Shown piece after piece: positions 12,183-52,300 of a stretch of 64,000 nt of DNA; the stretch's first letter is position 1, and every line of letters begins with the position of its first letter. The notes below the pieces were generated by a model, which was not told the origin of the DNA, did no database searches, and was given only the letters and a program-made list of their open reading frames with translations. Source of the DNA: an uncultured archaeon (lineage in GTDB: Archaea > Asgardarchaeota > Heimdallarchaeia > Heimdallarchaeales > Heimdallarchaeaceae); NCBI GenBank assembly GCA_964534625.1, contig CAZHRF010000013.1:1612-65611 (forward strand), read 5' to 3'. The position numbers were made by a program, and so were the translations under genes.

Positions 12183-12188
12183 CTTTTA

Positions 12189-22981: not shown

Positions 22982-23184
22982 GTGTAAAGGATATTAGTTT
23001 AGAAATAACGATTGATAAAGAAGGAAACATCTCTTACAAGGTTATAGGTGTAAAAGGTAAGGATTGTGTTAAAGAAACAAAGTTTTTAGATGACGCATTG
23101 GGAGTAGTTGAAGAACGAAAATTTACTCGGGATTATTATCAACAAGGAGTGAAGAGTAATAGAAGAGTGACAACGAGGAGATAA
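22978..23184 (+). CDS. DUF2997-like small protein (preferred start 22978; the ORF track gives 22969)
   Basis: ATGA start/stop overlap with the upstream gene at 22978-22981, with SD agagga 8 nt upstream. The pattern ITIDKEGNISYKVIGVKGKDCVKETKFLDDALG matches the DUF2997 style. Confidence 0.55.
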   Translation: MSVKDISLEITIDKEGNISYKVIGVKGKDCVKETKFLDDALGVVEERKFTRDYYQQGVKSNRRVTTRR

Positions 23185-23186
23185 AG

Positions 23187-24719: not shown

Positions 24720-24748
24720 ACACATGTAAAAACGTAATTGTGTGAAAG

Positions 24749-28834: not shown

Positions 28835-28846
28835 AAGGAGAAAAAA

Positions 28847-29419
28847 ATGAGTGTAAAACTGGCAAAAATAATAAAAAACTCAGAATCAAATGGACCAGGC
28901 ATACATTATACAATATGGTTTCAAGGGTGTAATTTAAACTGTCCAGAATGCTTTAATCCCCATACACATAATAGAAAGGGGGGTTTCAGAAAAAGAATAA
29001 ATCAGATAGTAAAGGAGATTAAACACGAAAAAGAAGTAAATAAAATAAAAGGAGTTACATTAACGGGAGGAGAACCCTTACAACAACTAGAGGGTGTTTT
29101 TAAGTTGGTAAAAGAAATAAAAACAAAAGTATCAGATATTGGTATAATTATCCTTACTGGATACGAACCTGAAGAATTGGAAAAAATGGAAATGTTCAAA
29201 CGAATAAGTACATATGTGGATGTGTTTATTGCGGGTAGGTATAGAAAAGAAAGGAAAATACAAAAGGGAATAAGAGGATCAGATAATAAAAAATACCTTT
29301 TTCTTACAGAATACTATGCAAGAAGAGATTTTGATAAAGTACCACAGCTAGAAGTAATAGTGGGAAAAACAGGTTCGATAGTGCTATCGGGAATAGAACC
29401 TGAAATAATGAATGATTAA
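28847..29419 (+). CDS. NrdG-like radical-SAM activase (anaerobic RNR-activating-enzyme family), no NrdD partner in the window
   Basis: SD aaggag (28835-28840) lies 6 nt before the ATG. ESNGPGIHYTIWFQGCNLNCPECFNPHTH (CxxxCxxC cluster) and GVTLTGGEPL are present. Confidence 0.7.
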   Translation: MSVKLAKIIKNSESNGPGIHYTIWFQGCNLNCPECFNPHTHNRKGGFRKRINQIVKEIKHEKEVNKIKGVTLTGGEPLQQLEGVFKLVKEIKTKVSDIGIIILTGYEPEELEKMEMFKRISTYVDVFIAGRYRKERKIQKGIRGSDNKKYLFLTEYYARRDFDKVPQLEVIVGKTGSIVLSGIEPEIMND

Positions 29420-35395: not shown

Positions 35396-35550
35396 GTACG
35401 TTTTTCACCTCTATGAAACAATTGAAGGTTGACTGTTGGAGTGGTGTTCCATGAAATCTTTGTTTTTTTCTGAAATTACATTTTTCTTGTAAACACCCTT
35501 GCTTCTGTTTCTTTACTAGTTTAACCTAAATGAGGGGATGAAACACTTAC
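35396..35550 (+). mobile_element. MITE-like non-autonomous element, copy A (155 bp)
   Basis: Starts gtacgtttttcacc and ends ggggatgaaacacttac. The termini are imperfect inverted repeats. It is flanked by the identical 8-bp direct repeat atgaaaac at 35388-35395 and 35551-35558. Confidence 0.75.
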
Positions 35551-35962: not shown

Positions 35963-37660
35963 TTAGGTAAATATCTCCCTAACATTGCATGTTTTGTTAT
36001 AATGATTACAATATGCATCTATAATTTTCTTAATTAGGGCGATTAAAATATAATTCCAATATCTTACAGAATCTTTGTATTCAACAAATATGGATCTTGC
36101 TCTTTTATATTCATCAATCGTTCTATATTCTGAATTTTCATTGCGTATCGCTTCTTTTATATCATAATCTTTTTTTGTATAAAAGGATTTTACGACTTCT
36201 GCTATGCTTTTAATAGCTTTGGCAAATAGTATTGATTCAATCCATGAAATAGTGTTTCCTCTTATTTCCACATTCATCTTATTTATGTCAAATGCATCTT
36301 CATATAGTTCATCTTTATCAAATATGTCTTTGGTGTATGATCTTGCAATATTTTGTTTTCCTTGAAAAGCCATACTTAATTGTCCAAATTCCTTCATAGT
36401 CAGAATACGATAATTTTTTGGCAGACCTTTAAATTTTTCCACAGATCCAGACCTTGACTTTGTAGAATCCCAACCTCCTCTTTTATGTTCATAAAATATT
36501 GATATCGAATGATCCCCAAGCATGTTTTTAATTGGAAGATGTATGTACTCATCAGCCGATCTCATATCTAGTTTGTTAATAGGGTTTTGTGTGTTTGTAG
36601 CTTGGGCAATTTTCTGTTTCTGTTTTTCATCTTCTATAGGGATGATTTTTGCCCAAACGTTTATTCCCTCTTGTTTAATATCATTTAAAGCCATTTTGTT
36701 TTCTCTCATAAAATCTCTTACAGCATCGTGAATTGCCCAACAAGTTTGACATCCATTAACTATTTGTGGTTTTACTAATATAAATTCGCCATTAAATACT
36801 TCTTGCTCTTCAATAATAACTAGGTCACAAATGATGTTCAATCCATTGTTCAGTGTTTCTAGTTCGTAATTAATGTCACCATTAGCTTTATCTAATAATT
36901 CTTTAACTTCATCTTTAATCATTTTTCCAATTTTCGACCCTCTACTAGGTGGTAATCTGAATCTTAAATTTTTGAGAAATAGTGCATCATTATGGGACTT
37001 AAGTAAATCATATATTTGAGTGACATTAATTGGACTTAATACCAGTTTTATTTCCTCTTCATTGTTTTTTCTAAGTATCAGCGCCTCTTTTTCCGATTTT
37101 ATCTTAATCTCATCTGGTGGTTGTAAAAAATATGATTCTTGATACCTTATGATTTCTATTATATCCTCTTTATCGTAAATTTCGACATCATTTTGTTTTG
37201 CATTTAATATTGCATCATCATTTAATCTTCCAGTAACACATACGACTTTACGAATAAGTTTTAGGTCTTTTAACCTTTTATAATCGCCCCTTAAATCTCT
37301 AAAATCATTGTTGAGAACATCTTCATCACTCTCTAGCATTCTTATTCCATTTAGGAGTTGATCTATAGGTTCATTGTCAAATGTTGTGTCTGACGAGAGA
37401 TCAGAGTATTTGCATTGTACTAGTAAAATTGTGTCTTTTTCATCATCGATTACTCCAATATCTATTCCATGATCACCTGTTTGACCAAAAAAAATCCTTT
37501 CATTAGGGTCAATGCCAAATATGTTTTTTGTGGCCCATTTTTCAAAAATAAATCCTTTTTTCTCATTTGATAGGATTTCTTCATTGGGATAATACTCTTT
37601 ACCTAAATTATTAATAGATTCTTCAAAATCTTGTATTATTTGTTCATTAAAATTACTCAT
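35963..37660 (-). CDS. AIPR-family abortive-infection protein with N-terminal PD-(D/E)XK (Mrr-like) nuclease domain
   Basis: The N-terminus has GDHGIDIGVIDDEKDTILLVQCKY (D...QxK nuclease core). The central PQIVNGCQT is the AIPR hallmark. Confidence 0.7.
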   Translation of the reverse strand: MSNFNEQIIQDFEESINNLGKEYYPNEEILSNEKKGFIFEKWATKNIFGIDPNERIFFGQTGDHGIDIGVIDDEKDTILLVQCKYSDLSSDTTFDNEPIDQLLNGIRMLESDEDVLNNDFRDLRGDYKRLKDLKLIRKVVCVTGRLNDDAILNAKQNDVEIYDKEDIIEIIRYQESYFLQPPDEIKIKSEKEALILRKNNEEEIKLVLSPINVTQIYDLLKSHNDALFLKNLRFRLPPSRGSKIGKMIKDEVKELLDKANGDINYELETLNNGLNIICDLVIIEEQEVFNGEFILVKPQIVNGCQTCWAIHDAVRDFMRENKMALNDIKQEGINVWAKIIPIEDEKQKQKIAQATNTQNPINKLDMRSADEYIHLPIKNMLGDHSISIFYEHKRGGWDSTKSRSGSVEKFKGLPKNYRILTMKEFGQLSMAFQGKQNIARSYTKDIFDKDELYEDAFDINKMNVEIRGNTISWIESILFAKAIKSIAEVVKSFYTKKDYDIKEAIRNENSEYRTIDEYKRARSIFVEYKDSVRYWNYILIALIKKIIDAYCNHYNKTCNVREIFT

Positions 37661-37707: not shown

Positions 37708-37771
37708 GTGCTACGTTTATTCCCTCTCCCTACTGTCTTTCAAGTCCTTTGAGCGGGGATGAAACACTTAC
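37708..37771 (+). mobile_element. Short or internally deleted MITE copy B (about 64 bp)
   Basis: gtgctacgtttattccctc...gagcggggatgaaacacttac keeps both end motifs of copies A and C. No clear target-site duplication. Confidence 0.5.
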
Positions 37772-37865: not shown

Positions 37866-38780
37866 TTAATTTTTCTTGTTTTCTTTTCTAAATATCAAGC
37901 AATACTGGTGATGTCTATTACCAACCCAAGCATTGTAAATTCCTAAAGGTAGTAAACTTTTATCATCTTGGCACCAGATTTTCTCATCTTTAAGTACCCA
38001 TTTACATTTATCAGTTCTAGATAGTGAGATTGCTGTATCATAAGCTAGGGGATAGACTTCACCATTATAAAAAACATTATTAGTTATAACAACCAAGTAT
38101 CCTTTATTTTTCATAACTTTCCATACTTGATCAAATATTTTCTTTTGTTCTTCTATAAACTCAAGATAATCATCAATATTTCCAATGTCATCCTCATTAT
38201 CTTCTGAGTAAATTGTATCAAGATTCTTCTCTTTTCTTTCTTTTTGTCTGATGTGGTTTCTTTTTAGTTGATTCCAATAAGGTGGACTGGTAATACAGAA
38301 ATCAACTTCTTCGATACCTTCTTTCTCAAGTAATGATACTAAATTCCGGGAATCTCCTGTGATTATTTTGTGTTCTGAAGTCATAATTTTTTCTTCAGAT
38401 ACTGAAACTTTATTCAAAATTTGTGATAATTCAGGTTGATCTTTTAGTCTTTCTTTAGCAATTTTGGAGTATTTTTTGTTAATCTCTATACCTACCCCAT
38501 TACGAATTAATTCTCTGCAAGCTACTAATGTGCTACCTGTGCCTAGAAAAGGATCTATTACCCACTCTCCTTTTTTAGTAAAAAAAGCTATAAATTCACT
38601 TACAAGGGATTCGGGATAACTAGCGGGATGCATTACCTTTTTATCCCCTCTCGATTTTGGTCTGTGAATAAACCATGATTTTGTAAATTTAATCCATTCC
38701 TTGCCTGAAAGTTCGTTTAATCGGTTTTCTGGTTTTTTTCTTTTGTTTTTTGTCAAGTAAATCAAGCCTTTTTCTGTCAA
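37866..38780 (-). CDS. SAM-dependent DNA methyltransferase (N6A/N4C type)
   Basis: Motif I is VIDPFLGTGSTLVA and catalytic motif IV is CITSPPYWN. The size is typical of a type II methyltransferase. Confidence 0.8.
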   Translation of the reverse strand: MTEKGLIYLTKNKRKKPENRLNELSGKEWIKFTKSWFIHRPKSRGDKKVMHPASYPESLVSEFIAFFTKKGEWVIDPFLGTGSTLVACRELIRNGVGIEINKKYSKIAKERLKDQPELSQILNKVSVSEEKIMTSEHKIITGDSRNLVSLLEKEGIEEVDFCITSPPYWNQLKRNHIRQKERKEKNLDTIYSEDNEDDIGNIDDYLEFIEEQKKIFDQVWKVMKNKGYLVVITNNVFYNGEVYPLAYDTAISLSRTDKCKWVLKDEKIWCQDDKSLLPLGIYNAWVGNRHHQYCLIFRKENKKN

Positions 38781-38998: not shown

Positions 38999-40024
38999 TT
39001 AGTCTTGTGGTGGCCAAGGATCATATGGTTTTATAAGGGCAATTTTTCTTATAGTAACCCTCTTGATAATACCTAGATCATCCATTAAACCTATGTAATT
39101 TGATATTCTCTGATGATTGTTCAAGAAACGTATACCTAAGAAGTTGCTTTCGTCAAATCCTTCTTCTATATATACTTCTTTGATTTTTTCTACTATGTCC
39201 TTGTTGGAAATAACTTGATCATCACAAGGATTGAGATTCTTATCTAAGCAATGTTTGAAAATTGCTCTCCAGATAATTTCTATAGGTTTTTTGAATATTT
39301 CATAGATAGTTTTCTTCATTCCCCACATATTTTGTTCATGTTTTAAAGCTAGGATTCTTTTAGAGAGATTTGTAAGTCTATTTTCAAAATCGATGAAACC
39401 ATATTGATATAAAGTTAAAAGAAAATTAACTCTTATGTGTTTTTCATTAAATTTAGTTCCATCATCCTTAAGCACCCCATTTTGAATACGTTCCGTTATA
39501 TAATGTGTTTCTAGTTCTTCTTCAGATTTTTCAAACTCTTCTTCCTTAATTACTTCTAAAATCTCTAATAATCTATCAATAGAGTTAATACCTTCATTAA
39601 AGAACACCCCTTGAACCATTATTTCTTTTTCTTCTTCTAAATTTTTAAGTTCCTTTTTTGCATCTTCTAGCGTTAATTCTCCGCCTTTCTTGTCTAGATA
39701 GAATATGTCTATTTCATCTGGTAAAGCTAACTTTGTTAAAGATACTAAACTATCTTGTGGTATTAAAAACACTACCTTTCCCTTTTTCAATTTGTCATTC
39801 TTATTTCTAAGGTGTTGATATTGATAACATTGTCCGATACCCCGAACAATATCAGTAAGACCAACTGAACCTTTGCACTCAATAAGAAAATCTGCTTGAT
39901 CATTTTTAAAGGCAACAACATCAATTATTGGACCTTGATATATGACAGGATATTCTTCATGAATATCATAGCCTTTTTTCTTATAATATTTTATGGCGGC
40001 ATTTTTTACGGTTTTTTCAATCAT
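38999..40024 (-). CDS. PD-(D/E)XK nuclease-like N-terminal domain fused to a helical/wHTH-like C-terminal region (candidate restriction or reader component)
   Basis: GPIIDVVAFKNDQADFLIECKG provides the D...ExK core. The gene lies between the DpdA-like genes and the methyltransferase on the same strand. Confidence 0.45.
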   Translation of the reverse strand: MIEKTVKNAAIKYYKKKGYDIHEEYPVIYQGPIIDVVAFKNDQADFLIECKGSVGLTDIVRGIGQCYQYQHLRNKNDKLKKGKVVFLIPQDSLVSLTKLALPDEIDIFYLDKKGGELTLEDAKKELKNLEEEKEIMVQGVFFNEGINSIDRLLEILEVIKEEEFEKSEEELETHYITERIQNGVLKDDGTKFNEKHIRVNFLLTLYQYGFIDFENRLTNLSKRILALKHEQNMWGMKKTIYEIFKKPIEIIWRAIFKHCLDKNLNPCDDQVISNKDIVEKIKEVYIEEGFDESNFLGIRFLNNHQRISNYIGLMDDLGIIKRVTIRKIALIKPYDPWPPQD

Positions 40025-40077: not shown

Positions 40078-41256
40078 TTATAAATATTGTAATATTTTAC
40101 TCTGTCTAAACTTCCTTTTTCGTTGTCCATATTTAAATAAAGAAAAGTATTGACTGTTCTTTAGATTTATTTCCAAGAATTCTGCATACTGTTTATTGGC
40201 TATTTTATTTAATGCCCGATGATTTTCTTTCATGAATACATAAGCATTATGTATTGCTCTTAACTTAAAGCTGTCATTTATTTTTTTTAAAGAATTATTT
40301 TCATGAATGCCACAATTACATTTCTTGAATTGTTCTATTTCCAATTTTGATAATTTTGGTCTATTTTTTCTTGCAGGACTAGGTAGAATAAATCTGTCTC
40401 CAGTCTTTGGCAACTGTATTGCACCAAATGCTGCTTTTAATCTCCAGCCCATGGAATCAATTGAATCGACTCCCAAGGCAAACATCAGATGCATCGTTGA
40501 GGAGCTTCCAATTCCAAAAACATGGAGAAATTTATCAGGAAATCTTTTTCGAACATATTTGATTGAATCTATGATAAATTGTTGAGTAGTATATTCATTG
40601 GATATTGCAAAACCGCTTTCAATTCCTATTTTTTTCGTTTTTTTTGCTGATCTTATTAGAGGTACTAAACTTCCTATACCTATAACAGGTGTGTCATAAC
40701 AAGCTAAACAATCACAAAAATGTTTTATTTCTTCCTTTGTATAACCATGGATAATGGGCATTATATTATTAAATTCTTGACTCATTAATCCCCAATTGTC
40801 CAATGATTTTTTGATATTAAACTTTCTTTGAGTTTTATTTTGATTCGGACCTAATGGTAAATCTAAACTAGCTAGTAAATCTGGTGAGGTTTTCTTATAG
40901 ATTTCTACAACTTCTTCCAAATTGATTTCAAAGTCTTGATTTTTCTGGATCAAATACCCACCAGAATCCATAAATACAATTCCATCAAAATTTAAAAAAG
41001 CATGAATATTTGAATCAAAGATTTTTTGTTTATGCTTTATTGATTTAATTATTTCATAAGCATTAATCATTAAACCTTGGATGTTTTTTTCTTTACCTTG
41101 TTCTCTAAAATAAACCCAAGGTTCAGGTTTTCCATTAAGTATTGTACCATGGAACATGATGGGAGTTTTTACTATTTTTGATCCAATTTTGAGTTTGCCT
41201 GTTCTAGCTTCTGTTTTTTTATCCTCATTATTTACAGTAAAACTAATTTTTGTCAA
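40078..41256 (-). CDS. TGT-family transglycosylase without PUA/tRNA-binding domains (DpdA-like), paralog 1; TTG start
   Basis: Collinear with the ArcTGT catalytic core: GKLKIGSKIVKTPIMF, GIVFMDSGGYLI, IIHGYT, GIGSLVPL, LHVFGIGSSSTMHLMFALGVDSIDS, and zinc site CNCGIH...IHNAY. Confidence 0.75.
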   Translation of the reverse strand: MTKISFTVNNEDKKTEARTGKLKIGSKIVKTPIMFHGTILNGKPEPWVYFREQGKEKNIQGLMINAYEIIKSIKHKQKIFDSNIHAFLNFDGIVFMDSGGYLIQKNQDFEINLEEVVEIYKKTSPDLLASLDLPLGPNQNKTQRKFNIKKSLDNWGLMSQEFNNIMPIIHGYTKEEIKHFCDCLACYDTPVIGIGSLVPLIRSAKKTKKIGIESGFAISNEYTTQQFIIDSIKYVRKRFPDKFLHVFGIGSSSTMHLMFALGVDSIDSMGWRLKAAFGAIQLPKTGDRFILPSPARKNRPKLSKLEIEQFKKCNCGIHENNSLKKINDSFKLRAIHNAYVFMKENHRALNKIANKQYAEFLEINLKNSQYFSLFKYGQRKRKFRQSKILQYL

Positions 41257-41322
41257 TATTCTTTCCTAGCTACATAAAAGATATTAATAAAGCAAAAAGA
41301 AAAAATGTGCAAAAATAGTTTG

Positions 41323-42492
41323 TTAGACATAGCTTATAAGTTTAGTCTGTTTTTGAGATTGATTTAGACTATATTTAAAGAGTTTTTTGTAAATAGTTCG
41401 TTCCAATCTTTTATTAACAAAACTTTTGTAGTTTTCGTTAGTAATTGCTTCTATTGCTTTGATGTTTTCCTGTAGAAATATATATGCATTATGTATTGCC
41501 TTAGGTTCAAAAGTTACATCAATATAATCATAATCATATTCTTGATGAATGCCACAATTACAATCATTGAACCTTCTTTTTTGTTCATTAGAGAATATGG
41601 GCCTATTACCTCTTTTCCCATCTAAGTCGGAAAGAAACCTGTCAGCTGTAAAAGGGAGCTGTACTGCGCCATAAGCTGCTTTTAATCTCCAGCCCATGGA
41701 ATCGATGGAATCTACTCCCAAAGCAAACATCAAATGCATTGTTGAAGCACTCCCAATACCAAAAACGTGAAGCATCCGTTCAGGAAATCTCTTCCTTACA
41801 TAATTAATAGAATCAACGACAAAATGTTTACTTTTATACCACTTCTCATCTGAAAATCCACTATTCTTACCAATATGTTTTGTACCATTGGTTGATCTCA
41901 TTAGAGGAACAAGACTTCCTATCCCTATAACAGGACATTCATAAGATTCTAAGATGTCACAAGCATTTTTTAATTGTTTTTTAGTATAGCCATGAACGAC
42001 AGGAACTATGTTTGGAAAAATTTCGTGCATTTCTTCATAATTTTTCATGGTATTTTTCCAATTTTTTTGGTTCTCTTGATAACTTTTTTCAGGAGAAAAT
42101 GGATGATCCAAGGAAACAAAAAGATCTGGATCTGACTTTCTATAAACCTCTAAAACATCTTCGACTTCAATCTCAAAATCTTGTTTTTTTTGGATTAAAT
42201 ATCCACCTGAGTCCATAAATACAATTCCATCAAAATTTAGAAAATCATGTATATTGTTTTCAAAAATAGTTTTTTTATGCTTAACAGATTTGATTATTTC
42301 ATATGCATTTAACATTAAACCGCGTATATTTTGCTTTTTACCGTGTTTTTTGAAATATATCCATGGTTCGGGTTTTCCATTAAGTATTGTGCCATGGAAC
42401 ATGATTGGGGTTTGAATTCTTTTATTACCAATTTTTAAAGTTCCCTTTCTAGCAGCAGTATCGTCGCATTCTTTATCAATCTTGAAAGACAT
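41323..42492 (-). CDS. TGT-family transglycosylase without PUA/tRNA-binding domains (DpdA-like), paralog 2
   Basis: Has the same motif set as paralog 1 (GTLKIGNKRIQTPIMF, FMDSGGYLI, VVHGYT, LHVFGIGSASTMHLMFALGVDSIDS, CNCGIH...IHNAY). Confidence 0.75.
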   Translation of the reverse strand: MSFKIDKECDDTAARKGTLKIGNKRIQTPIMFHGTILNGKPEPWIYFKKHGKKQNIRGLMLNAYEIIKSVKHKKTIFENNIHDFLNFDGIVFMDSGGYLIQKKQDFEIEVEDVLEVYRKSDPDLFVSLDHPFSPEKSYQENQKNWKNTMKNYEEMHEIFPNIVPVVHGYTKKQLKNACDILESYECPVIGIGSLVPLMRSTNGTKHIGKNSGFSDEKWYKSKHFVVDSINYVRKRFPERMLHVFGIGSASTMHLMFALGVDSIDSMGWRLKAAYGAVQLPFTADRFLSDLDGKRGNRPIFSNEQKRRFNDCNCGIHQEYDYDYIDVTFEPKAIHNAYIFLQENIKAIEAITNENYKSFVNKRLERTIYKKLFKYSLNQSQKQTKLISYV

Positions 42493-42578: not shown

Positions 42579-43925
42579 ATGCATCCAATCATTTTGTTTA
42601 ATAACATACATAATGAATATAACTTAAATGAGAAAACTAAAGATTTGAAAGATACTTTATCAAGGAAAATTAAGGAAGGAGCGAAGGAGGATGGAAGTGA
42701 GTTACTTTTTGGAGTTGCATATATTAAAAATTCAGGCATAAATCCCTATCTAAACAATTTTGAACAAATATTAAGTCAGAATGGAAGAATCAAAATATTA
42801 ACTTGTTTTGATTTTGGATTAACCGATCCACTTGCATTGAAAAAACTTATCCAATTGAAAAAATTTGGGGATATCGAAGTTCATTTCTATCAAAATACAA
42901 AAGGTAATTATCATCCTAAATTTTACTTATTTAATACAAATAATAAAAGAGGGGGTATAATAGGTTCAAATAATTTTACATATTCTGCTCTCAATGATAA
43001 TATAGAATTAGCTGTTTTAATTAATGACCAAGAAAGTATTAAAAATTTGGAGAGTTATTTTTATTCACTATGGCAAAAATCAGTTAATATCAATGCTGAA
43101 ATTATTGATGAGTATTCAACAAAATATAACAAGCTACAAATAGAACGAGAAAAAACAGAGAAAGAAATGAAACAATTAGCTGAAAGTTTTGAAGAAAGAG
43201 TAATAAGTGACCCCATAGATGAAGAAGAAATAGAAACCATAATATCACAAATCAAAGCTTATTTTAATATTCCCTCTGGCTTGCTTTTTTGGAGAGATGT
43301 GGCTCCTGATGAAGTAGGTACATTATTGTATTATTCTTCAAAAGAAGAAGATTTTGATGCAAGAGAATTTGTAATAGATTTGATAAGAAATGACTGTCTT
43401 CATTATAAAAGTGAGTCATCAATTGGAGCATGGTTAAATTATCGCTTATTTATGGAAACCATAGGTTATTGGGATGATTATGGACTAACAAAATGGGGAA
43501 AAATTGCTCTTGATGAATATAGAAAATCAGGACAAGGTTTTTTAGCATTTTTGCAATTCAGCATATTAGTTTCGGGTGAAATTTACAGATTAATTAGTGT
43601 ATTAAATCAAGCAAACAGTGAAATTAAGCACATAATTAATTCTGAAAGTAGATTATTAAAGGGTGAATGGATTGATCTTGTTTATCCAATAATATGTGAA
43701 AAACTGGCAAAATATGGTGCGGATTATGAATTGGGAGAGGAAAGTTTCAAACGATATCTTCCAAGTCTATTTAATAAATTTGGACTGGGGTCATATATCT
43801 ATACAATAATACCAACTGTCTACGAAATCAAAATACATGAAATCTCTCACCAAATTCTCAATTATGGTCAGAAATTCAAATTGAAATCATCGGAAACGCA
43901 AAATGATTTTATTGGCGATCTCTGA
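42579..43925 (+). CDS. PLD-superfamily (single HKD-like motif) nuclease-like protein with a large uncharacterised C-terminal domain
   Basis: NYHPKFYLFNTNNKRGGIIGSNNFTYSAL is an HxK...GSxN motif. The C-terminal ~280 aa are unassigned. Confidence 0.65.
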   Translation: MHPIILFNNIHNEYNLNEKTKDLKDTLSRKIKEGAKEDGSELLFGVAYIKNSGINPYLNNFEQILSQNGRIKILTCFDFGLTDPLALKKLIQLKKFGDIEVHFYQNTKGNYHPKFYLFNTNNKRGGIIGSNNFTYSALNDNIELAVLINDQESIKNLESYFYSLWQKSVNINAEIIDEYSTKYNKLQIEREKTEKEMKQLAESFEERVISDPIDEEEIETIISQIKAYFNIPSGLLFWRDVAPDEVGTLLYYSSKEEDFDAREFVIDLIRNDCLHYKSESSIGAWLNYRLFMETIGYWDDYGLTKWGKIALDEYRKSGQGFLAFLQFSILVSGEIYRLISVLNQANSEIKHIINSESRLLKGEWIDLVYPIICEKLAKYGADYELGEESFKRYLPSLFNKFGLGSYIYTIIPTVYEIKIHEISHQILNYGQKFKLKSSETQNDFIGDL

Positions 43926-44552
43926 GTCACTCAAGTCCTCAATAATGTCATTAATATCGGATAAAGTAATATTCTGACCTTTTTGTGTCTTTGTATAATA
44001 TAAATTTACAAATCTTGATATTGCATCAGAATCGCTGATATTTTCAATATCTATTTGATTATTTTGCATCTGCTCAATGTGTTCATCAAACTGATTTTGA
44101 TATGTTTCTGCATCCAAATTTCTGCTTATTCTAGAATTTGTTAATTTCTTAATTTCCTTGTAAATTCCTTTTAAATTTTTAGCTTTTTTGGTTTTTTCTT
44201 TATCTATTTTGATTTGAATTAAGAAATCTAAGAAAGCTATTTTGTCATCTATAGCTTTAATTATCTCAAACTTAAATGAATTCATTAATCCTTCGGCGTT
44301 TTTAAAGAGATCTTCTACATTTGTAATAAGATCGTCATGTTCTATTTTTTGATGGGATTTCAATGACTCATAATTTTCATATAAATTCTTGAGACTTGTT
44401 TTTTTCCCTATTGCAATTAAAAATTTGGAGTAACATAGACATTTCACTAAAGATTCGTTTAAATCTTGAAATTTTTCTTCTATCTCTCTGGTTTTCTCTC
44501 TATTTAATGACTTTTCAAGTGCTTTAACTAATGACATCATGTATCTCTCCAA
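43887..44552 (-). CDS. Hypothetical helical protein, last gene of the helicase operon
   Basis: Overlaps the upstream gene by 29 nt. Its 3' end overlaps the convergent PLD gene by 39 nt. Confidence 0.4.
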   Translation of the reverse strand: MERYMMSLVKALEKSLNREKTREIEEKFQDLNESLVKCLCYSKFLIAIGKKTSLKNLYENYESLKSHQKIEHDDLITNVEDLFKNAEGLMNSFKFEIIKAIDDKIAFLDFLIQIKIDKEKTKKAKNLKGIYKEIKKLTNSRISRNLDAETYQNQFDEHIEQMQNNQIDIENISDSDAISRFVNLYYTKTQKGQNITLSDINDIIEDLSDSEIANKIILRFR

Positions 44553-47481
44553 TCATTTGTAAGATGTTTTTAGCTTGATTTTGAAGGTTGTCTGATAAAT
44601 CTTCAAAATTTCTATTTATTAGATTAATAATCTCTTTTTTCTCTTCCAGGTTTGTAAACCATTTCCAGAAAATGTAATATTCCATTTCTAAATTGTCTAT
44701 AGAAATTGATACATCTTCTTCAAAATCGTTAAATCCTAAATATTTAAGGTTAGTCTTTAGGTTTTTGAGTTTATTTCTTATCTCTGAAATATTGTCATTT
44801 TTTAAGAATTGTCCGATTTTTACTATTCTTCTGCGAATATCATAGTCCAAGTTCTCTACTAAATTCTTATTTTTGTTATAAATTTCAAGATATTGATTTA
44901 TTTCACCCGGTTCAAGATTTTGGATAATAATATTCATATCTTTAAAATTAAACTTATTTACTTTTTTCATCCTCTCTAATTCAAGATGTAAATCTTTTAT
45001 TGTAAGTAAAAATTCACTTAGAGGTCGATCTGCAAATCGCACTTTATTATCTAAGTTATTTATATTATTTTTTGTAATATCGTAACCAATATTGATTTTA
45101 TTTTGTGCTTGTTCTCTTATATAAGAAAAATCTTCTTCTGATAGTATATTTGCATCGGAAGAAATCTGCTCTAGATAAAGATTAAGTAGAGATTGTACAT
45201 CATCTTTAATGTTATTTCGTAGACTCTTTTTTACTCCTACTATTTTACAGTTTTTAGTTAAATTATTGATGAAATCTTCTTTTTGTTCATCTTCTACAAG
45301 AATAGAGTAAATATCCATGTCTTCAATTTCTTTATGTGGGTAGCTGATTTTAAGAAGAAGATTTAGAAATAAAGATAATGCTTTGTTAATAATATTTGTT
45401 TCCTTTTTATTGGATCTTTTCAAAATGCTAGAAAATTGTTTGTAGTAATAATCTATAAAATCTTGCCGCCAGAATTGGGCATAGGAAAGAAATAAAGGAA
45501 TACCCTCTTCACAAAGTTGCAACTTTTCTTCAAAACTTATAGAACTTTTATCGTCAATTGCACAACCAATAAGGATTATCTTTCTCAGTAAACTCATGGG
45601 GAGAGATTTTTGATCTATAGTGATTTGTAATAAGTCCTTATCTGATTTCTTGTCATTTTCGTGAATTATAGGATATTCATTTTTTCCATATCGATAAGTG
45701 AGAGAGGGTAAGTTTTTTAGTGAATATCCATTAGTAAAAATACCCATGATTTCTTTCATGCCTATTTTAAAATAAGAATTGATGTCTTGATATTTTGTCT
45801 TTAGTTCATTTTGTGTGCTCTCAGACCAAGGAGATATCAATTCAAGAACGTTAACATATTTCTTCTCTAGTTTTTCGATATTGGTTAACTCTTCTTCAAT
45901 TGTTGAAAAATCTGTCTTTTCAGTTCTCTGAGTTATAGTGTCTGATTTGTATCTTGTCTTACCTTTTTCTGGAATTAGTACTTGGTGATCTCTTCTCTTA
46001 AATTCTTCAATGGATTCTAGATCTAAATTAAAGAAATTGAAATAGTCTTTTTCCAAGGAGAAAAATGTGTTCCCGTTGATGTTATTTTTAGTATAATAGA
46101 AAGAAATGAATCTGCGTAATTTTTCATCATATATTGGTTTTTGAAATTCTAAATAATCCATTTTTAGATTTCTAACTTCCGAAGATTCTGTTGGGGGTTC
46201 TTCAAATTCTAGATAATGTAAAATTGATCTATATATATTCTGTATGAATGTTCTGGGCTTTTTCTCGTCCATCTTGTCAAATAATCTTTTTATAAATGCT
46301 TCATTAGCTGGAAAAAGAACTTTAAATTTATCTGAGGGGCACTTCTGACAATTTTTACAAATATTACCAAACATATCTTGAATGAATTCAAAATATTTTT
46401 TAGCAAAATTAAAGGATGTGTCAGAATTCAAAAATAGAACATTTGTATTTTCTTGTTCATTTGTTCTGAAGAAATGAAACCTATCTCTTCTTGTTGCTTC
46501 TTCTTTAACAATACTAATTATATCTGTAGTACCTGCAATTAAAAAATCCCATCTGTCATCAGGGACATCTCTTTCCATATATTTGAGCAATCTATTCAAA
46601 TCTAATGTTGCAATTTTAAGATCTTCCATAATCATGGCAACTCTTTTATCGATTGAGTTCATATGCTCACTTATTGCATTCATGATTTCCTCAAAACTAG
46701 GAGCACCAAAATGTTCATTTAGATTACTCCACAAATTACTATTAATTTCCTTCAGATATTCTTCATCATTCATCCAATTTTTTGTAGTATGATTATCTTT
46801 CAAAATTTGAATTACTGATTTTAAACTGTTAAACTGATTAATGTCTGAGGATGTGAAAAAATTAGCTTCATAATCAGTAATATAAAGACTACTATCTGTC
46901 CTTATGATATTTCCGATTTTAGTTCCAAATGCTTTTTCAAAAGCATCTATTATTCCTTGTTTGTTTTCGTTTATATCTTCGAGAAAAACATATTCTTCAA
47001 AAAACCTACCAACTATTTGTTTTGCAATGGCGTGTCGTTTATTTGTTTTTTTAAGCTCCTTTTGCAATTTTAAGGCATTGTCACTTTTAGGAAAGCTTGT
47101 TCCAGTTTTTTCTTTATAAAACTCTAGAAGGTGTATTTTCATAGTAGTTAAATCCATATTTTTAGGAATATGAACAACTTCCCATCCCCTGTCTTCTAAA
47201 TCATACACTAATTTAACGCACAACTCAGATTTTCCAGTTCCTGTTTCTCCCTCTATAACAATACATTGATTCCCGGGATGATTATAATTAAAAATGCTAG
47301 CTATCTCGTCTTCGGATACTTTATTCATGTTGTTATCATAAACATATACTTTTGTATGGGTCTTTTCAAACATTTCTCGCAGTTTAGATCGGTTCCCTGC
47401 TGCAACATTGAAAATAGAAACCAAGCTATATTTATTATGTTTTTTCGCTTCTAATAATTTTGGACATTTGAAATTACTCAT
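44524..47481 (-). CDS. Large P-loop NTPase, family unassigned
   Basis: Walker A VIEGETGTGKSELCVKL lies near residue 80 and the remaining ~900 aa are helical. The gene overlaps the upstream gene by 8 nt. Confidence 0.55.
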   Translation of the reverse strand: MSNFKCPKLLEAKKHNKYSLVSIFNVAAGNRSKLREMFEKTHTKVYVYDNNMNKVSEDEIASIFNYNHPGNQCIVIEGETGTGKSELCVKLVYDLEDRGWEVVHIPKNMDLTTMKIHLLEFYKEKTGTSFPKSDNALKLQKELKKTNKRHAIAKQIVGRFFEEYVFLEDINENKQGIIDAFEKAFGTKIGNIIRTDSSLYITDYEANFFTSSDINQFNSLKSVIQILKDNHTTKNWMNDEEYLKEINSNLWSNLNEHFGAPSFEEIMNAISEHMNSIDKRVAMIMEDLKIATLDLNRLLKYMERDVPDDRWDFLIAGTTDIISIVKEEATRRDRFHFFRTNEQENTNVLFLNSDTSFNFAKKYFEFIQDMFGNICKNCQKCPSDKFKVLFPANEAFIKRLFDKMDEKKPRTFIQNIYRSILHYLEFEEPPTESSEVRNLKMDYLEFQKPIYDEKLRRFISFYYTKNNINGNTFFSLEKDYFNFFNLDLESIEEFKRRDHQVLIPEKGKTRYKSDTITQRTEKTDFSTIEEELTNIEKLEKKYVNVLELISPWSESTQNELKTKYQDINSYFKIGMKEIMGIFTNGYSLKNLPSLTYRYGKNEYPIIHENDKKSDKDLLQITIDQKSLPMSLLRKIILIGCAIDDKSSISFEEKLQLCEEGIPLFLSYAQFWRQDFIDYYYKQFSSILKRSNKKETNIINKALSLFLNLLLKISYPHKEIEDMDIYSILVEDEQKEDFINNLTKNCKIVGVKKSLRNNIKDDVQSLLNLYLEQISSDANILSEEDFSYIREQAQNKINIGYDITKNNINNLDNKVRFADRPLSEFLLTIKDLHLELERMKKVNKFNFKDMNIIIQNLEPGEINQYLEIYNKNKNLVENLDYDIRRRIVKIGQFLKNDNISEIRNKLKNLKTNLKYLGFNDFEEDVSISIDNLEMEYYIFWKWFTNLEEKKEIINLINRNFEDLSDNLQNQAKNILQMIGEIHDVIS

Positions 47482-48454
47482 TTTTATCGCCTCGATTTAT
47501 TATCTCAATCCAGTTAACTTTATCGCCAAATTTTGCTTTGATGAATGTAGGTTTCGGTGATACAATAGGGAAATCACCTCTGTTTAACAAATTAATATGA
47601 TCTCTCGAATATAGTAGCCAAAGGGCACTACCCATTGATTTTGTGATAAATGCTTGATATTTATCATCTTGTTGTGTTATTGGAAGAAATTTCTTAGCTA
47701 TTGTATCAATTAAGTTCTTTAGGGGCATTCCTTTGGTTTCTGTTTTGGAATATTTTGAAATTAATGGTCTTAATAAGTACATTATATAGTAAGGATTGAG
47801 TTTTGAAAAGTAATATTTATCCCTTCCATGTTTTACTTCCTCACATAACTCCAGATCTTTTAATATTTCTAATGCATTCCTTAGTTTGTTGTCATTCATT
47901 TCTATTAGTTTCCCTCGACTAGACTCAGGCTTATAACCAATATTATTAAAATATGTGTTAACATCATTAACTGTTTTTTGACTTCTTTTTAAGCCATACT
48001 TTGTATCTTGACTAATTTCCATAAAACTGTAAACTAAAAGAATTGCAGCTTGTTTGTAAAATACATATTTGGAAGTCGGTTCCATTTTAAAAGATATATT
48101 GGCTAAATTTTTAATAATTTCAAAATTTAGTTTATAATCAATATAGCGTTGTAAAGTATCTGTATCCAGTTTTCCCCTTTTTTTTTCTATGATTGTATAA
48201 ATGTCGGAAACTGTTTTTAAAAGATCTTTAGCTAAGCATATTTTGTCATGTTTTTTTTCTGTCATACCCAGTACTCTTAAAAATTCGAGTTTTTCATCAA
48301 TATTTCTTTCTTTATTAGAATGAAACTTTTCTAGAATGCTAGTATGCTCAAAACCGTTTGATTCTCTTCCAAGGAGCATAATAACTTTCCTTATTCCGCT
48401 TACATTGTTTACTTGGTTTAAGAGATATGGTTGATCAAATTCTTCCATGGACAT
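47474..48454 (-). CDS. Hypothetical protein (possible wHTH repeats), helicase operon
   Basis: 326-aa ORF with overlapping ends on both sides. No family recognised. Confidence 0.45.
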   Translation of the reverse strand: MSMEEFDQPYLLNQVNNVSGIRKVIMLLGRESNGFEHTSILEKFHSNKERNIDEKLEFLRVLGMTEKKHDKICLAKDLLKTVSDIYTIIEKKRGKLDTDTLQRYIDYKLNFEIIKNLANISFKMEPTSKYVFYKQAAILLVYSFMEISQDTKYGLKRSQKTVNDVNTYFNNIGYKPESSRGKLIEMNDNKLRNALEILKDLELCEEVKHGRDKYYFSKLNPYYIMYLLRPLISKYSKTETKGMPLKNLIDTIAKKFLPITQQDDKYQAFITKSMGSALWLLYSRDHINLLNRGDFPIVSPKPTFIKAKFGDKVNWIEIINRGDKNE

Positions 48455-49353
48455 ATTAAATTCTTCCTTATTTTTTCTGGTAAAACATTAAAAATTCTCA
48501 CTATTTCATCTACTATGGATTTCTTATTTGGATGTTTATATTCCCAATATATACTTTCGAAATCATTATCTTGATACTTTCTGAGAATTAAATTTGTTAT
48601 TTCTTTATTCTCTTCATTATTTAACTCAAATTGATATTTGAAATTTCTAGCTATTGCAGTTATGATATTTCCCTTGTTTTTTACTTTTTCTCTATCTAAA
48701 CTATTAATATATTCCATAATATTGTAGAAAATTGGATTCATTTCCTCTTTAATAGCATATATTATCAATTCTTTAACTGTATCGAACTTTTTATTGTCAA
48801 TTTCATTAAAAATATATGCCAGATTATTCAAGAATAAATTTTGTGTTTGAGTGAAATCTAATTTCCAGTTGTAATTTTCTTTAAGCGTTTTAACTATTCT
48901 CTGATACATTTCAGTGTAATAAGTAAAGTAATTTTCATGAAATAACTCTGTTTCTTTCACTGGTCGTACAAATCCCGATAAGGTTTTTTTACACGCATCT
49001 TGTTCATTCAGAACAAATAGGTAATCATGTTTTGCTGATATTAAGATTTTATGTATTGCATAATCAAAAGAATAATCGCCATATCTTGATTTTGAAATCA
49101 TACAATATTTCTGTTCTGATCCTTTATTTTCTTCCAGAATTTGATCAATATGAACAAATTCGTGTGGAATTGGAGTGAACTGTTTGTATTTCTTAGAAAT
49201 TTTTCTCCATCCTATAGGATAGGTGAAATCTTTAACTCCGAGTAGTTGTAAGATGGGTATTGATCTTAGAAGAGATCCAATGTTTTCTTCAATTATTAGA
49301 ATATATTTATTTGACTTAATCTTGTTTGTGTAATAATCAATGAAATCAGTCAT
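48418..49353 (-). CDS. Hypothetical protein, helicase operon
   Basis: 311-aa ORF that overlaps the helicase gene by 8 nt. No family recognised. Confidence 0.45.
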   Translation of the reverse strand: MTDFIDYYTNKIKSNKYILIIEENIGSLLRSIPILQLLGVKDFTYPIGWRKISKKYKQFTPIPHEFVHIDQILEENKGSEQKYCMISKSRYGDYSFDYAIHKILISAKHDYLFVLNEQDACKKTLSGFVRPVKETELFHENYFTYYTEMYQRIVKTLKENYNWKLDFTQTQNLFLNNLAYIFNEIDNKKFDTVKELIIYAIKEEMNPIFYNIMEYINSLDREKVKNKGNIITAIARNFKYQFELNNEENKEITNLILRKYQDNDFESIYWEYKHPNKKSIVDEIVRIFNVLPEKIRKNLICPWKNLINHIS

Positions 49354-52300
49354 AATATGTTTTCTCCAATACTCTTTTGACTACTTTACGATCTAACAAG
49401 TCATTTTTTATTATAGAAACAGGTGTTCTCTCTATTAAGACACACCTTTTGCAAAACTTATCACAATTATCACAATTAACAACAGAATTAACATTAGCTA
49501 GAATTTCATCAATATTCTTATTAACAGAATCCGCTATCCCATTCCCACCTTCACAATTGTCAACTATAGAGAGTCTGATAGATTTCTTTGTGTGTGTGGA
49601 AACAATAGTAAAATCATTGAGATCACAACCAAGGATAACTGAGATTGATTTCTTTAAAGCTTGTTCAAATGTAGATTCAAATATAGCTAATTTTCTTTTA
49701 TCTGTTGCATCTCTCTCTTCTTTTGGCTTATTGATGATTTCATTTATTGGAAAATCGAAAGTAAACGATTTGGTATATACATTGGTTCCTACTGGAACAT
49801 ATGTTCTTTTTAGTTGTTTGGTTCCACCTTCAAGAGCTTCTAACAAATTATCTAAATCTTCTTCTGGTTCAAGTTCTTCTTCTAATGTTTCAGAGGCTAT
49901 ATCTTCATGTATTTCGGCTTGGGAAGGTGAATCTGTCCAATCACTAGAAGCTCTGAATCTATAAGAAAACGATGGTACAAATGTAACCAGATTAGCAGTG
50001 GAAACAAATTTTGAAGAACTTATGTTGTTGCCAATCTTTAGCTCCTCTTTTTGAGGTTTCTCATAACTAATGTCTTCTATTATGAAAGGTGAAGATTTGT
50101 AGCCGAGATTCGATGGTAATCTTTTAATTTCAATACTTTCAGGTGCGTAAACATTTAATTCTGTGAGTTCATTATCACATAGTACACACTTATCAAGATG
50201 TTTTTCAGCTTTCAATTGATAAAAGTCACATTCTTTATTATCGCATATTTTTGTTTGAAGAATCTTTTTAGATGCGTATACTTTATTTGTAATATATGGA
50301 GTCATAGAAATGAGTTGAGAACCACCACTATACCGTCTCCCCGTTTTTTCGTAATTGTTATTCATATAACCAGGATAATTTTCTTTAATAGCATCCAGTA
50401 TTGATTTTTCATCAAATATCTCATTTTTCATTTTTATTGGTATATTTTGTACAAATCCTCTATAATTGGCTAAATAGCCTATTTTATTTAATATATTACT
50501 GAAAAACCTATAGTCTTCTGCTAATTTGTTTTGAGAGCTTTTAGAAAGTCCTCTCATCTTTGCATAATAAGAGAAGAAATTGTTTGTTCGTTTTAGAATT
50601 GAATAATCATTGTTTTTGTCAAGTATTCTTAGAAGAAGATTTTTAGCTGTATCTCCAAAACATTCAGAAATAGTTTGCTCGATTTCCTTCATCTTTTTAT
50701 CTTCGATTAATTTAGTGAATGCTTTGACCCTGATTTGGTTTTGACTTATAAATTTCCTCAGAGAAACATTGGCAAAAGGAGTATCCCATATTTTTTTGTA
50801 GATGTCTTTAAGATCATAATTTCTTGCTAAGTAGGTAGCTATTAAGGTAATTATATGGGAAGCATAAACTACCTCTACATCCTCTTTTTCTGGGATTCCA
50901 ATTTTTGGTATAGAGTCAAAATATCTTTCTTCTAATCTATCAAAATAATAATCATCGATGGCATTACCAGCCTTAATAAATGTTACAATAATTGATGATT
51001 TTCCTCCACTTCTTCCTGCTCTACCAGCTCTTTGAATATAATTTGCAATACCTGGTGGAAGTCCCACTAAAAAGATTGTATCTAAGTCCCCAATATCAAT
51101 TCCCAGCTCAAATGTAGTTGTTGCGGATATGGCGTTCACATCAGGTTTTGTACTTTTGAAATTATCTTCTATTACACTTCTAAGTTCCAAAGGTATACCC
51201 GCTCTGTGCACATTAATAGCCAAAGTATTTTCAGCCTCTGTGGTGGCATTGATTTGCTTCGCCCAATAGTCATTAACAACATTTGCTGGTGTTTTCTGGC
51301 CTAAAAATCCCCCATTTTTGGATCGATTTCCAGAAATGAATTCACCTTTACACAAAGGACAAATCTTGGTTAAAAAATTTATGGCGGGAAAAGCTTTCTT
51401 GCAAACTTCACAAAGATTAACTTTAGAAACTTTCTTCAAGGTGAAATCGTGTTTTTTTGCCTTAATTTTTCCCTCTCCTTTGTATCTCGTTGTAATTATA
51501 CCATAACAATCCTTAGGGATTTGAAATTCTATGGGGTCAAACAATTCTTGTAAACTTTTAGTTTGAATCTCAAAATAATCCTTTAGTGGGGCTCTGTCTT
51601 TTTCATGGGCATTAGACTCTATATTTGTGTTTATAATAGTCCTCTTGATAAAGGTTATAACATTATTTTCATAAAGGTATTTGATTACATATGGGAGTTC
51701 TTTATCAAGTATGTGACGCTTAATTTTTAGATTAAATTCTCTTATTTTTTCTAAAGTAAAGCCATCAAATTTGACTTTATGTCTGCTGAATTTACCCCCT
51801 TTTAATAACCTTTTCAGTATAGTATGACCAATTATAGCTTGGATATCATTTTCACTTTCTGTTAAAATACATTCTGCTGTGATTAGACTGCCATCAAACA
51901 ATATGGTAGCCGAATTTAAATTTGGAAGATGTTTTAACTCCGACTCTCTAAATTCTTTCCATTGCTTTCTACTAGCATAATCTCTTAAGGAATCCAAAAT
52001 TGGTTTATAGTATTTTTTATCAACAAATTGGATTGCTTTACCCCATAGATCATATGATAATAAAGGTTCTTCTAGGAGCTCAACCATTTTCCTTTGTGTT
52101 GAAATTTGATAGTCATTAGAAACAAAATCATGTCCAATTCTTTCAGCTAAATTTCTACTGTCTGCGAATATTAAAACTTTCTTTGAAGGAACTTTTCTTC
52201 CATAGACGGACAAGAATTGACTTAATAACTGGGGATGATATATTGTACCATCCTTTGTTTGATAAAATCTATTTAGACCACTTCCACATCGAGGACAATC

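Follow-up and report, generated by a model that had tools for sequence, protein, structure and literature searches.

Two genes encoding proteins of the tRNA-guanine transglycosylase (TGT) fold, TGT-A and TGT-B, lie in tandem in a 64,000-nucleotide (nt) stretch of DNA from an uncultured Heimdallarchaeaceae archaeon (contig CAZHRF010000013.1 of assembly GCA_964534625.1, positions 1,612–65,611; this whole stretch is hereafter called the window). We found that TGT-B is the resident enzyme of a conserved restriction-modification-type cassette, a compact set that can be defined as helicase, ATPase, PLD nuclease, TGT and methylase, and that TGT-A is an additional paralogue present in this genome only. 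On balance, and by analogy with known systems, we lean towards a Dpd/DISARM/BRIGADE-like restriction-modification system built around a DNA transglycosylase derived from the archaeal enzyme ArcTGT, with TGT-A as an extra writer. The integrity of the two genes, their fold and family placement, the operon context, the orthologous systems with a single TGT and the mosaic phylogeny of TGT-A were all observed directly.

The two tandem open reading frames (ORFs) of 392 and 389 amino acids (aa) that a sequence-only reading of the window had called are present on the minus strand (Table 1). Their full-length protein sequences share 56% identity (E = 2e-168), and at the DNA level the pair contains tandem repeats of 300 nt and 207 nt that are 76% identical and stand at a constant offset of 1245 nt. 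A purine-rich AGGAAAG in the spacer between the genes, immediately 5′ of the TTG start codon of TGT-A, provides a plausible ribosome-binding site. An independent Logan assembly (SRR7048228) shows the identical arrangement and gene calls, indicating that the tandem pair is not an assembly artefact. The window is archaeal, with a GC content of ~30% and a deoxyhypusine synthase gene, and the nearest relatives of its TGTs come from Heimdallarchaeia. The defence-island setting proposed earlier is borne out by multiple recognisable defence genes, namely AIPR/AbiU, a PLD nuclease, a DruE-like helicase, a Schlafen-NACHT protein, a CBASS-type cyclase and TumE/PIN toxins.

Both proteins are clearly members of the TGT superfamily, with Pfam TGT (PF01702) scores of 68.5 bits for TGT-A and 81.7 bits for TGT-B (cut-off 26.3) and scores of 60.3 and 72.2 bits with the superfamily model TIGR00449 (cut-off 47.6). 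All the landmarks of the ArcTGT catalytic core that had been described were found again in both: FMDSGGY, VIGIGSLVPL, HVFGIGS..TMHLMFALGVDSIDSMGW, CNCGIH and the downstream His of AIHNAY. In TGT-B numbering, which we use throughout, the key residues are D94, D129, H167 and D264, together with the zinc ligands C311, C313, H316 and H334. An alignment of 157 family members showed D94, D129, H167, H242, D264, C311 and C313 to be invariant and H334 to be kept in 156; every one of these residues is present in TGT-A as well as in TGT-B, so that the inspection of catalytic Asp residues suggested earlier finds all three in each paralogue. From the columns at least 90% conserved in the family, each protein departs seven times. 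AlphaFold2 models reached confidence (predicted local distance difference test, pLDDT) values of 95.1 for TGT-B and 94.1 for TGT-A, with the same secondary-structure elements. Both genes are thus intact and neither is decaying, which disposes of the concern that one of them might be a pseudogene.

We next consider where these proteins fall within the superfamily, whose general model was the only one in NCBIfam that both of them passed. The TgtA equivalog model (TIGR00432) gave 98.6 and 103.6 bits against a cut-off of 350, answering in the negative the question, raised by the sequence-only reading, of whether the paralogues are housekeeping ArcTGT-like enzymes; the bacterial DpdA model (NF041059) gave 21.4 and 30.6 bits against a cut-off of 200, and the PADLOC DpdA profile matched TGT-B only over residues 72–198 (4e-7). 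A profile of 119 family members scored 139 bits against ArcTGT (1iq8), covering the whole catalytic domain, and 38 bits against a partial stretch of bacterial DpdA (7ui4). Consistent with this, the top Foldseek match of TGT-B in the PDB was the catalytic domain of 1iq8 (TM-score 0.77; 0.53 when normalised to the 1iq8 target), followed by QTRT1 and bacterial TGT; DpdA was not among the top 50 matches, and viral DpdA-like models in BFVD matched less well (TM-score ≤ 0.61). DpdA4, which is the DUF6610 family of archaeal viruses (PMC10516641), gave no match with its Pfam model (PF20314), PF01702 being the only Pfam family assigned to either protein. Viral relatives are few: tblastn against phage records returned Sulfolobus-virus TGTs (24–30% identity, partial coverage) and one Thermocrinis virus and no others, PHROG gave no match for TGT-B and a weak one for TGT-A, and 2.9 million viral contigs yielded a single relative. 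Taken together, the sequence comparisons place TGT-A and TGT-B in a distinct clade derived from the ArcTGT catalytic domain, belonging to neither TgtA, bacterial DpdA nor DpdA4. This clade comprises at least 270 cluster representatives of 340–420 aa. It was recovered by searching genome contigs with the family alignment, a single-protein query having found nothing, and it is patchily distributed, in the manner of mobile defence genes, occurring in Heimdall archaea, Archaeoglobales, Bathyarchaeia, Thermoplasmata, Nitrosopumilus, Bacteroidota, Chloroflexota, Bacillota and others.

Two structural claims of the sequence-only reading needed adjustment. Both TGTs align with residues 10–347 of the 582-residue Pyrococcus horikoshii ArcTGT chain (1iq8), from which it follows that the C1, C2 and PUA domains are missing; the absence of the tRNA-binding C-terminal domains therefore stands, but the proteins do not end directly after the zinc helix, as ~55 residues, forming two short helices and a long terminal helix, lie beyond the last zinc ligand in the models. 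Similarly, the CNCGIH zinc site is found in both proteins, but its reading as a mark of DNA enzymes could not be upheld. Among the 157 family members, 146 carry CxCPxC and 11 carry CxCxxH, the CxCGxH form being restricted to an eight-member Heimdall clade, and bacterial DpdA has CxCx2Cx22H; because of this, CxCxxH is a clade-level quirk rather than a DNA-versus-tRNA signature. The models also contain four N-terminal strands (residues 2–8, 15–21, 24–28 and 30–34), and the stretch between the last barrel strand region and C311 is only ~25 residues long. The family-invariant His167 aligns with Gln169 of ArcTGT. Bacterial DpdA reads the base through His181 and Asp130, and His167 may be the positional counterpart of DpdA His181, a part of 7ui4 that lay outside the PDB alignments.

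The gene neighbourhood ties TGT-B to its cassette. Orthologues 61–66% identical to TGT-B occur with the same cassette in nine loci (L001–L008 and L012), drawn from JGI metagenome contigs and the complete genome of Ca. Heimdallarchaeum endolithica PR6 (CP084167, around 2.737–2.758 Mb); recovery of the cassette genes was incomplete in some loci, partly because they lie on short contigs. Two gene orders were seen, which are circular permutations of one set, with the permuted order in L002–L005 and L012. Orthologues of the YprA/DruE-like helicase are 50–55% identical in L001–L003, L006, L007 and L012 and 33% identical in a Poribacteria locus (L038). With its PADLOC matches (DruE 2e-54, DpdJ 9e-24, DrmA 6e-20), the protein is of the helicase class that typifies DISARM, Dpd and Druantia-type systems. 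The P-loop ATPase has orthologues of 39–51% identity in L001, L006–L008 and L012; it gave weak P-loop/STAND matches and none to Dpd or Brx models, and is possibly an energy or sensor component. The PLD-family nuclease, transcribed divergently from TGT-B, has orthologues (33–36%) in the matching position in L001 and L006–L008 and is a candidate restriction effector. An equal-sized gene occupies the position of the 221-aa protein in L001.

Table 1 Features of the TGT locus and its cassette (window positions)
Feature	Coordinates	Strand	Description and basis
AIPR/AbiU-like protein	35963..37660	-	Pfam AIPR 85.5 bits; PADLOC AbiU
N6/N4 DNA methyltransferase	37866..38780	-	TSPPYW motif; Pfam N6_N4_Mtase 101.9 bits; PADLOC type II MTase
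341-aa protein, candidate PD-(D/E)xK restriction nuclease	38999..40024	-	E..D..ECKG motif; pairing with methylase
TGT-A	40078..41256	-	392 aa, TTG start; extra paralogue; ORF call
AT-rich spacer between TGT-A and TGT-B, 66 bp	41257..41322	-	direct sequence reading
TGT-B	41323..42492	-	389 aa, ATG start; catalytic-domain-only, ArcTGT-like; ORF call
PLD-family nuclease (NgoFVII/DrmC-like)	42579..43925	+	Pfam PLDc_2, RE_NgoFVII; PADLOC DrmC 1.5e-9
221-aa conserved cassette protein	43887..44552	-	orthologues in L006-L008, 29% identity
985-aa P-loop ATPase	44524..47481	-	weak Pfam STAND/AAA_22 matches
326-aa conserved cassette protein	47474..48454	-	sub-threshold DUF6035 match; orthologues 31-36% identity
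311-aa conserved cassette protein	48418..49353	-	orthologues 33-40% identity
YprA/DruE-like DEAD helicase, 1581 aa, C-terminal MZB (DUF1998)	49346..54091	-	Pfam DEAD, Helicase_C, MZB

The methylase behaves as a hub of these systems: its orthologues (51–75% identity overall; 64–75% within the Heimdall cassettes) adjoin the TGT in L001–L005, L012, L025 and L038, and in all of these except L025 the TGT gene neighbours the methylase gene in convergent orientation, compared with a co-directional one in the window. Every orthologous system that we found, in L001–L008, L012, L025 and L038, contains a single TGT. The slot between TGT and methylase is empty in L002–L005 and L012, holds a DUF328 gene in L001, and in the window is filled by TGT-A and the ORF for the 341-aa protein.

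Several of these loci have features of their own. The L001 gene, directly after the TGT (L001:11197–11943), encodes a DpdC-family protein (DUF328/YaaA) whose C-terminal part includes a zinc-ribbon-like stretch; DpdC is the DUF328 protein that converts dPreQ0-DNA to dADG-DNA (PMC5699537; PMC12839542), and by sequence the link of the L001 gene to DpdC is at the family level only. In L008, a DUF2400 gene follows the TGT (7156–7791), and the contig ends before any methylase. A Heimdall metagenome-assembled genome (MAG) has a third architecture around the TGT and methylase pair, with genes for AIPR, a small PLD protein, TGT, methylase and a second methylase-like protein all co-directional (L025:7004–12864); its TGT is 37% identical to TGT-B and its methylase 64% identical to that of the window. 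Given this order, the AIPR gene downstream of the methylase in the window may also belong to the system. The Poribacteria MAG locus (L038:2414–11507) carries a reduced cassette of a TGT, a methylase (53% identity), a ~385-aa PLD-like gene and a YprA-like helicase, which implies that the system has been transferred between domains. The ~385-aa gene family, weakly PLD-like by way of L025, is fragmented in tblastn between methylase and helicase in three loci (L003:4553–5593, L004:6482–7522 and L005:5300–6340), where it may be frameshifted or decaying. In ~18 loci, found in archaea and bacteria alike, more distant members of the clade have NurA, HerA and a ~1400-aa protein as neighbours, and one Methanobacterium locus instead has DUF499 and a SNF2 helicase; most clade loci with identifiable neighbours are DNA-targeting defence operons.

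The nearest relatives of TGT-A are TGT-B and the TGT-B orthologues, at 54–57% identity, with none closer in 5.8 billion proteins. The observation that the N-terminal ~110 residues of the two proteins are the most alike was reproduced: A–B identity is 71% over residues 1–110, 48% over 111–240 and 34% over 286–388, falling to 32% over 121–160. Over residues 1–110, TGT-A and TGT-B are each 58–59% identical to the TGT-B orthologues; over residues 121–160 and 286–388, TGT-B is 53–65% identical to its orthologues. Neighbour-joining (NJ) trees of the two regions (Kimura distances, bootstrap) gave correspondingly different results, with TGT-A and TGT-B as sisters for residues 1–110 (96–98% bootstrap) and TGT-B grouped with its orthologues to the exclusion of TGT-A for residues 111–389 (97%). 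In the zinc subdomain (residues 281–340), TGT-A is 51% and TGT-B 39% identical to the sister clade, and 38% and 27% identical, respectively, to the rest. The net charge of segment 276–340 is +8 in TGT-A and −2 in TGT-B, and TGT-B and all its orthologues (net charge −3 to +3) share a derived acidic/aromatic motif, EYDYDY..FEPK. By these comparisons TGT-A is a mosaic, with an N-terminal ~110 residues resembling TGT-B and a basic, family-typical zinc subdomain.

Recent gene conversion was considered as the source of the similar N-termini and ruled out, because A–B codon identity at conserved residues is flat across the regions (0.53–0.63), indicating that any conversion is not recent. The most economical account of the sequences is that TGT-A is an older paralogue or xenologue that came to lie beside TGT-B and whose 5′ third was homogenised with it long ago, by gene conversion or recombination; asymmetric acceleration with long-branch effects is a possible alternative to such an old conversion.

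Directly downstream of TGT-A lie the gene for the 341-aa protein and the methylase. The 341-aa protein matched nothing in Pfam, PADLOC, NCBIfam or PHROG. A word-indexed search had made it look like an ORFan, a status overturned by an exhaustive phmmer search, which recovered 21 distant relatives besides the query (22 representatives including it). The family conserves E23..D35..E49-C-K51-G, a motif typical of PD-(D/E)xK nucleases, and is a candidate for a new restriction endonuclease family. In two loci (L059:4467–6997 and L061:270–1959), its relatives directly precede a methylase 53–55% identical to that of the window, so that the 341-aa gene and the methylase resemble a classical pair of nuclease and methylase. 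This pairing accounts for why the methylase is co-directional with the TGTs in the window and convergent with the TGT in most orthologous loci. The ~385-aa gene that adjoins the methylase in L002, L012 and L038 was considered as a counterpart from which the 341-aa protein had diverged, an idea rejected because no similarity was detected.

The tandem lies at the seam between a helicase/PLD/TGT-B cassette and a TGT-A/nuclease/methylase block, and the best reading is that two related modification modules have come to adjoin each other here. Because its basic zinc subdomain differs sharply from the acidic/aromatic one of TGT-B, TGT-A most likely supplies a second DNA-recognition surface rather than an obligatory partner subunit. 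Among the loci examined, only one other has two TGTs: in L036, from Bathyarchaeia, two convergent paralogues (9977–11179 on the plus strand and 11176–12432 on the minus strand) are 25% identical, and the second has GVHSIET in place of GVDSxDS, changing the nucleophilic Asp to Glu. The L036 sequences suggest a catalytic subunit with an altered one, and that locus is nearer to such a design than the window pair is.

In the system that we favour, TGT-B would exchange specific guanines in the double-stranded DNA of the host for a 7-deazaguanine, using Asp264 as the nucleophile and Asp94 as the acid/base. The inserted base would most likely be preQ0, drawn from the archaeosine pathway of the host, as suggested by the lack of synthesis genes nearby. 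The methylase would add a second mark to host DNA, and foreign DNA entering without these marks would be the target of restriction by the helicase, ATPase and PLD module; TGT-A would be an extra writer with a different recognition surface. That the TGTs are DNA transglycosylases, as the sequence-only reading had proposed, is the best reading of their role in view of their non-TgtA scores, the patchy spread of the family, the DNA-targeting defence operons and the DUF328 gene in L001.

Bacterial Dpd is among the closest known systems, comprising the DpdA transglycosylase, the DpdB ATPase, the DpdC amidohydrolase and the restriction proteins DpdD–K, including the DpdJ helicase; DpdK is a PLD-type protein. 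Shared with the window are a TGT-superfamily enzyme with a catalytic Asp triad and a structural zinc site, located in a restriction-modification-like island with a YprA-class DUF1998/MZB helicase and a PLD nuclease, and, in the orthologous locus L001, a DUF328 (DpdC-family) gene. In contrast to Dpd, the window TGTs are not DpdA by sequence, retain N-terminal β-strands that DpdA is missing and leave no space for the large Ins8 insertion; the cassette has no DpdB/ParB-like gene, always has an N6/N4 methylase, and its remaining proteins match no Dpd model, and the host is an Asgard archaeon. ArcTGT, on the other hand, is the best match in both sequence and fold, with equivalents of its Asp95, Asp130 and Asp249 kept (D94 and D129 being assigned to Asp95 and Asp130 from the alignment) and the zinc site in the same place. 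The window TGTs differ from it in lacking C1, C2 and PUA, in falling far below the equivalog cut-off, in having an invariant His for Gln169, and in belonging to a patchy clade that includes bacteria and sits in defence operons.

Related systems share much of the accessory machinery, as YprA helicases with DUF1998 and PLD nucleases are common hardware of DISARM, Dpd, Druantia and BRIGADE. A 2025 preprint (10.1101/2025.09.15.676423) added ARMADA, TALON and BRIGADE, the last being a Dpd-like system with predicted 7-deazaguanine hypermodification reported from haloarchaea only. Like the window, BRIGADE is archaeal and has ARMADA/Druantia-like YprA helicases with PLD nucleases; it usually has two such helicases, a 7-deazaguanine biosynthetic cluster and DpdG/DpdHI, whereas the window has one helicase, no biosynthesis genes, a methylase and other accessory proteins. 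Of the features expected of Dpd and BRIGADE, the window contains the YprA-class helicase with DUF1998/MZB and a PLD or PD-(D/E)xK nuclease, and its ORFs of at least 120 aa do not include a 7-deazaguanine biosynthesis cluster. With DISARM and Druantia the window shares a DUF1998 helicase (best match DruE), a DrmC-like PLD protein and a DNA methylase, and the helicase-DUF1998 fusion and PLD protein match the DISARM models DrmA and DrmC weakly; it departs from them in having no DrmD/DrmE or DruA–D/DruH, in the TGT within its conserved gene set, and, compared with DISARM, in a methylase that is a small PF01555 enzyme and not of the DrmMI/MII type. In BREX-related capture (BRC; NAR 2026, PMC12839542), which is HerA-centred and lacks DpdB and DpdC, a TGT has been proposed as the self-marking module. 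Many distant clade members similarly adjoin HerA (and NurA), but the window has no HerA, PglZ, DUF6079 or DUF4007. The QTRT1/QTRT2 pair resembles the window in having two TGT paralogues in one organism, with QTRT1 among the fold matches; it differs in that both window copies are catalytically complete and that the second is not co-conserved in related genomes.

A number of points weigh against the DNA-marking system as we have drawn it. A scan of window ORFs of 120 aa or longer, which took in nearly all of them, turned up no preQ0 gene (QueC/D/E, FolE), and within that scope the absence of a preQ0 biosynthesis gene noted earlier holds; nor did PADLOC find a DpdB/ParB-like gene among the window neighbours or the L001 and L002 proteins. 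The L001 DUF328 protein gave no PADLOC DpdC match and a weak NCBIfam YaaA match of 33 bits. These systems already include a methylase and could in principle do without a second mark. The basal place of TGT-A in the NJ trees could partly be due to long-branch attraction following asymmetric acceleration rather than to an older origin, and the results are compatible with TGT-A possibly providing either a second specificity or a heterodimer partner. More generally, it is from homology and context that we infer what TGT-A does, that DNA is the substrate, which base is inserted and how restriction operates. One candidate for a precursor gene, the only radical-SAM ORF (28847–29419), was rejected as QueE, scoring 25–32 bits against cut-offs of 260–300; it is NrdG-like (108.8 bits).

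The rival explanations differ chiefly in the role that they give to the two TGTs. The obligate heterodimer of the sequence-only reading is contradicted by the single TGT of every orthologous system and the confinement of TGT-A to one genome, and the accompanying analogy with QTRT1/QTRT2, a catalytic and a dead subunit, fails because both copies are catalytically complete. A softer version, in which the two catalytic proteins form a facultative heterodimer that is the working DNA transglycosylase, seems unlikely to us but has evidence in its favour. tRNA TGTs act as dimers, as a heterodimer in eukaryotes, and in bacterial TGT the zinc subdomain and C-terminal part carry a dimer-interface hot spot; it is in the zinc subdomain and the C-terminal helices that the divergence between A and B is concentrated, the charges of −2 and +8 in segment 276–340 could be complementary, the N-terminal thirds have been kept alike, and L036 provides another locus with two paralogues. 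The single TGT of all orthologous systems nevertheless indicates that enzymes of the TGT-B type function with no A-type partner, TGT-A is confined to one genome, DpdA of bacteria is monomeric, and, unlike QTRT2, neither protein has lost any of its catalytic set. That TGT-A is instead a redundant duplicate without a distinct role, retained by chance or recently juxtaposed and now drifting, would fit its uniqueness to one genome, the common gathering of spare parts in defence islands, and its 15 changes at positions invariant in TGT-B and orthologues, compared with six in the reverse comparison. We regard this as quite improbable, given an intact ORF with a plausible ribosome-binding site, the retention of all invariant family residues, a model confidence like that of TGT-B, a zinc subdomain that is divergent but family-typical rather than degenerate, and an A–B DNA identity of only about 50–80%, which implies long retention.

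Two further explanations place the TGTs outside DNA marking altogether. As effectors, they would attack unmethylated foreign DNA by excising bases or by crosslinking to DNA, with the methylase protecting self. The TGT mechanism does proceed through a covalent enzyme-DNA intermediate, the adjacent and convergent TGT and methylase genes in L001–L005, L012 and L038 resemble many type II restriction-modification pairs, and restriction glycosylases exist as a class (PMC10273834). Several observations nonetheless make such a role very unlikely: in the NurA-HerA loci, which have nucleases and in which no homologue of the methylase was detected, the TGT is the sole detected candidate for a self-mark; the residues of the pocket for the 7-deazaguanine/guanine base are strictly conserved; the DUF328/DpdC-family gene in L001 fits a modification pathway; and dedicated PLD and PD-(D/E)xK nucleases are already present. 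Least probable of all, in our judgement, is that the TGTs act on tRNA, whether as short or split housekeeping ArcTGTs or as tRNA-targeting abortive-infection effectors. ArcTGT is the closest solved structure and the best sequence model, the models have the N-terminal β-strands typical of tRNA TGTs, ArcTGTs without a PUA domain can still make archaeosine, and public sources call some clade members 'tRNA-guanine transglycosylase'. Yet TgtA equivalog scores lie far under the cut-off, the patchy distribution includes many bacteria, DNA helicases, nucleases and DNA methylases account for nearly all identifiable neighbours and none is related to tRNA, and Gln169 of ArcTGT is replaced in the clade by an invariant His.

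If the clade does modify DNA, as in the restriction-modification reading that we favour, the range of 7-deazaguanine in DNA, so far comprising bacteria, phages and haloarchaea, would grow to include Asgard archaea and other phyla, and its writer would have arisen by a new, independent recruitment of the ArcTGT catalytic domain, apart from bDpdA and DpdA1–4. Hundreds of database entries labelled 'tRNA-guanine transglycosylase' are probably not tRNA enzymes, and the single- and double-TGT versions of the cassette could serve as a natural experiment on how writers gain specificities. A bolder proposal, which we hold to be decidedly doubtful, is that this unnamed ArcTGT-derived clade writes a 7-deazaguanine self-mark for several unrelated restriction machineries (YprA-helicase/PLD, NurA-HerA and DUF499/SNF2) in Asgard archaea and many other archaea and bacteria, and that here two catalytically active paralogues whose zinc subdomains carry opposite charges, acting either as a heterodimer or as two motif-specific writers, would combine with an m4C/m6A methylase into a combinatorial epigenetic self-code. 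In our literature search, neither the Heimdall cassette nor this TGT clade as such turned out to have been described, and nothing relevant came up on Asgard Dpd-like/TGT systems or on archaeosine in Asgard archaea.

Other parts of the window hold further genes and repeats of possible interest. A co-directional run on the plus strand (22580–29419) encodes a DUF1257 protein, an AAA+ ATPase (510 aa), a Mre11/SbcD-like phosphoesterase (415 aa), a Rad50/SbcC-like ATPase (945 aa) and the NrdG-like radical-SAM activase (190 aa); it is unusual for a glycyl-radical-type activase to accompany an SbcCD-like pair, and the combination may be a further defence module. The same island includes, on the minus strand, a 1368-aa protein with Schlafen AlbA_2, NACHT-like and TPR domains (55675–59781) and a CBASS-type SMODS cyclase (62994–63827), the latter with unannotated neighbours at 60133–61230 and 61548–62201. 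An exact 17-nt repeat, GGGGATGAAACACTTAC, occurs three times on the plus strand (35534–35550, 37755–37771 and 59979–59995), with a near-copy of three mismatches on the minus strand (59843–59859), shuffled sequences predicting 0.10 matches. All copies are intergenic, two of them bracketing the AIPR/AbiU gene and two lying upstream of the Schlafen-NACHT-TPR gene, and the repeat may serve these genes as a common regulatory element or mark the edge of a cassette.

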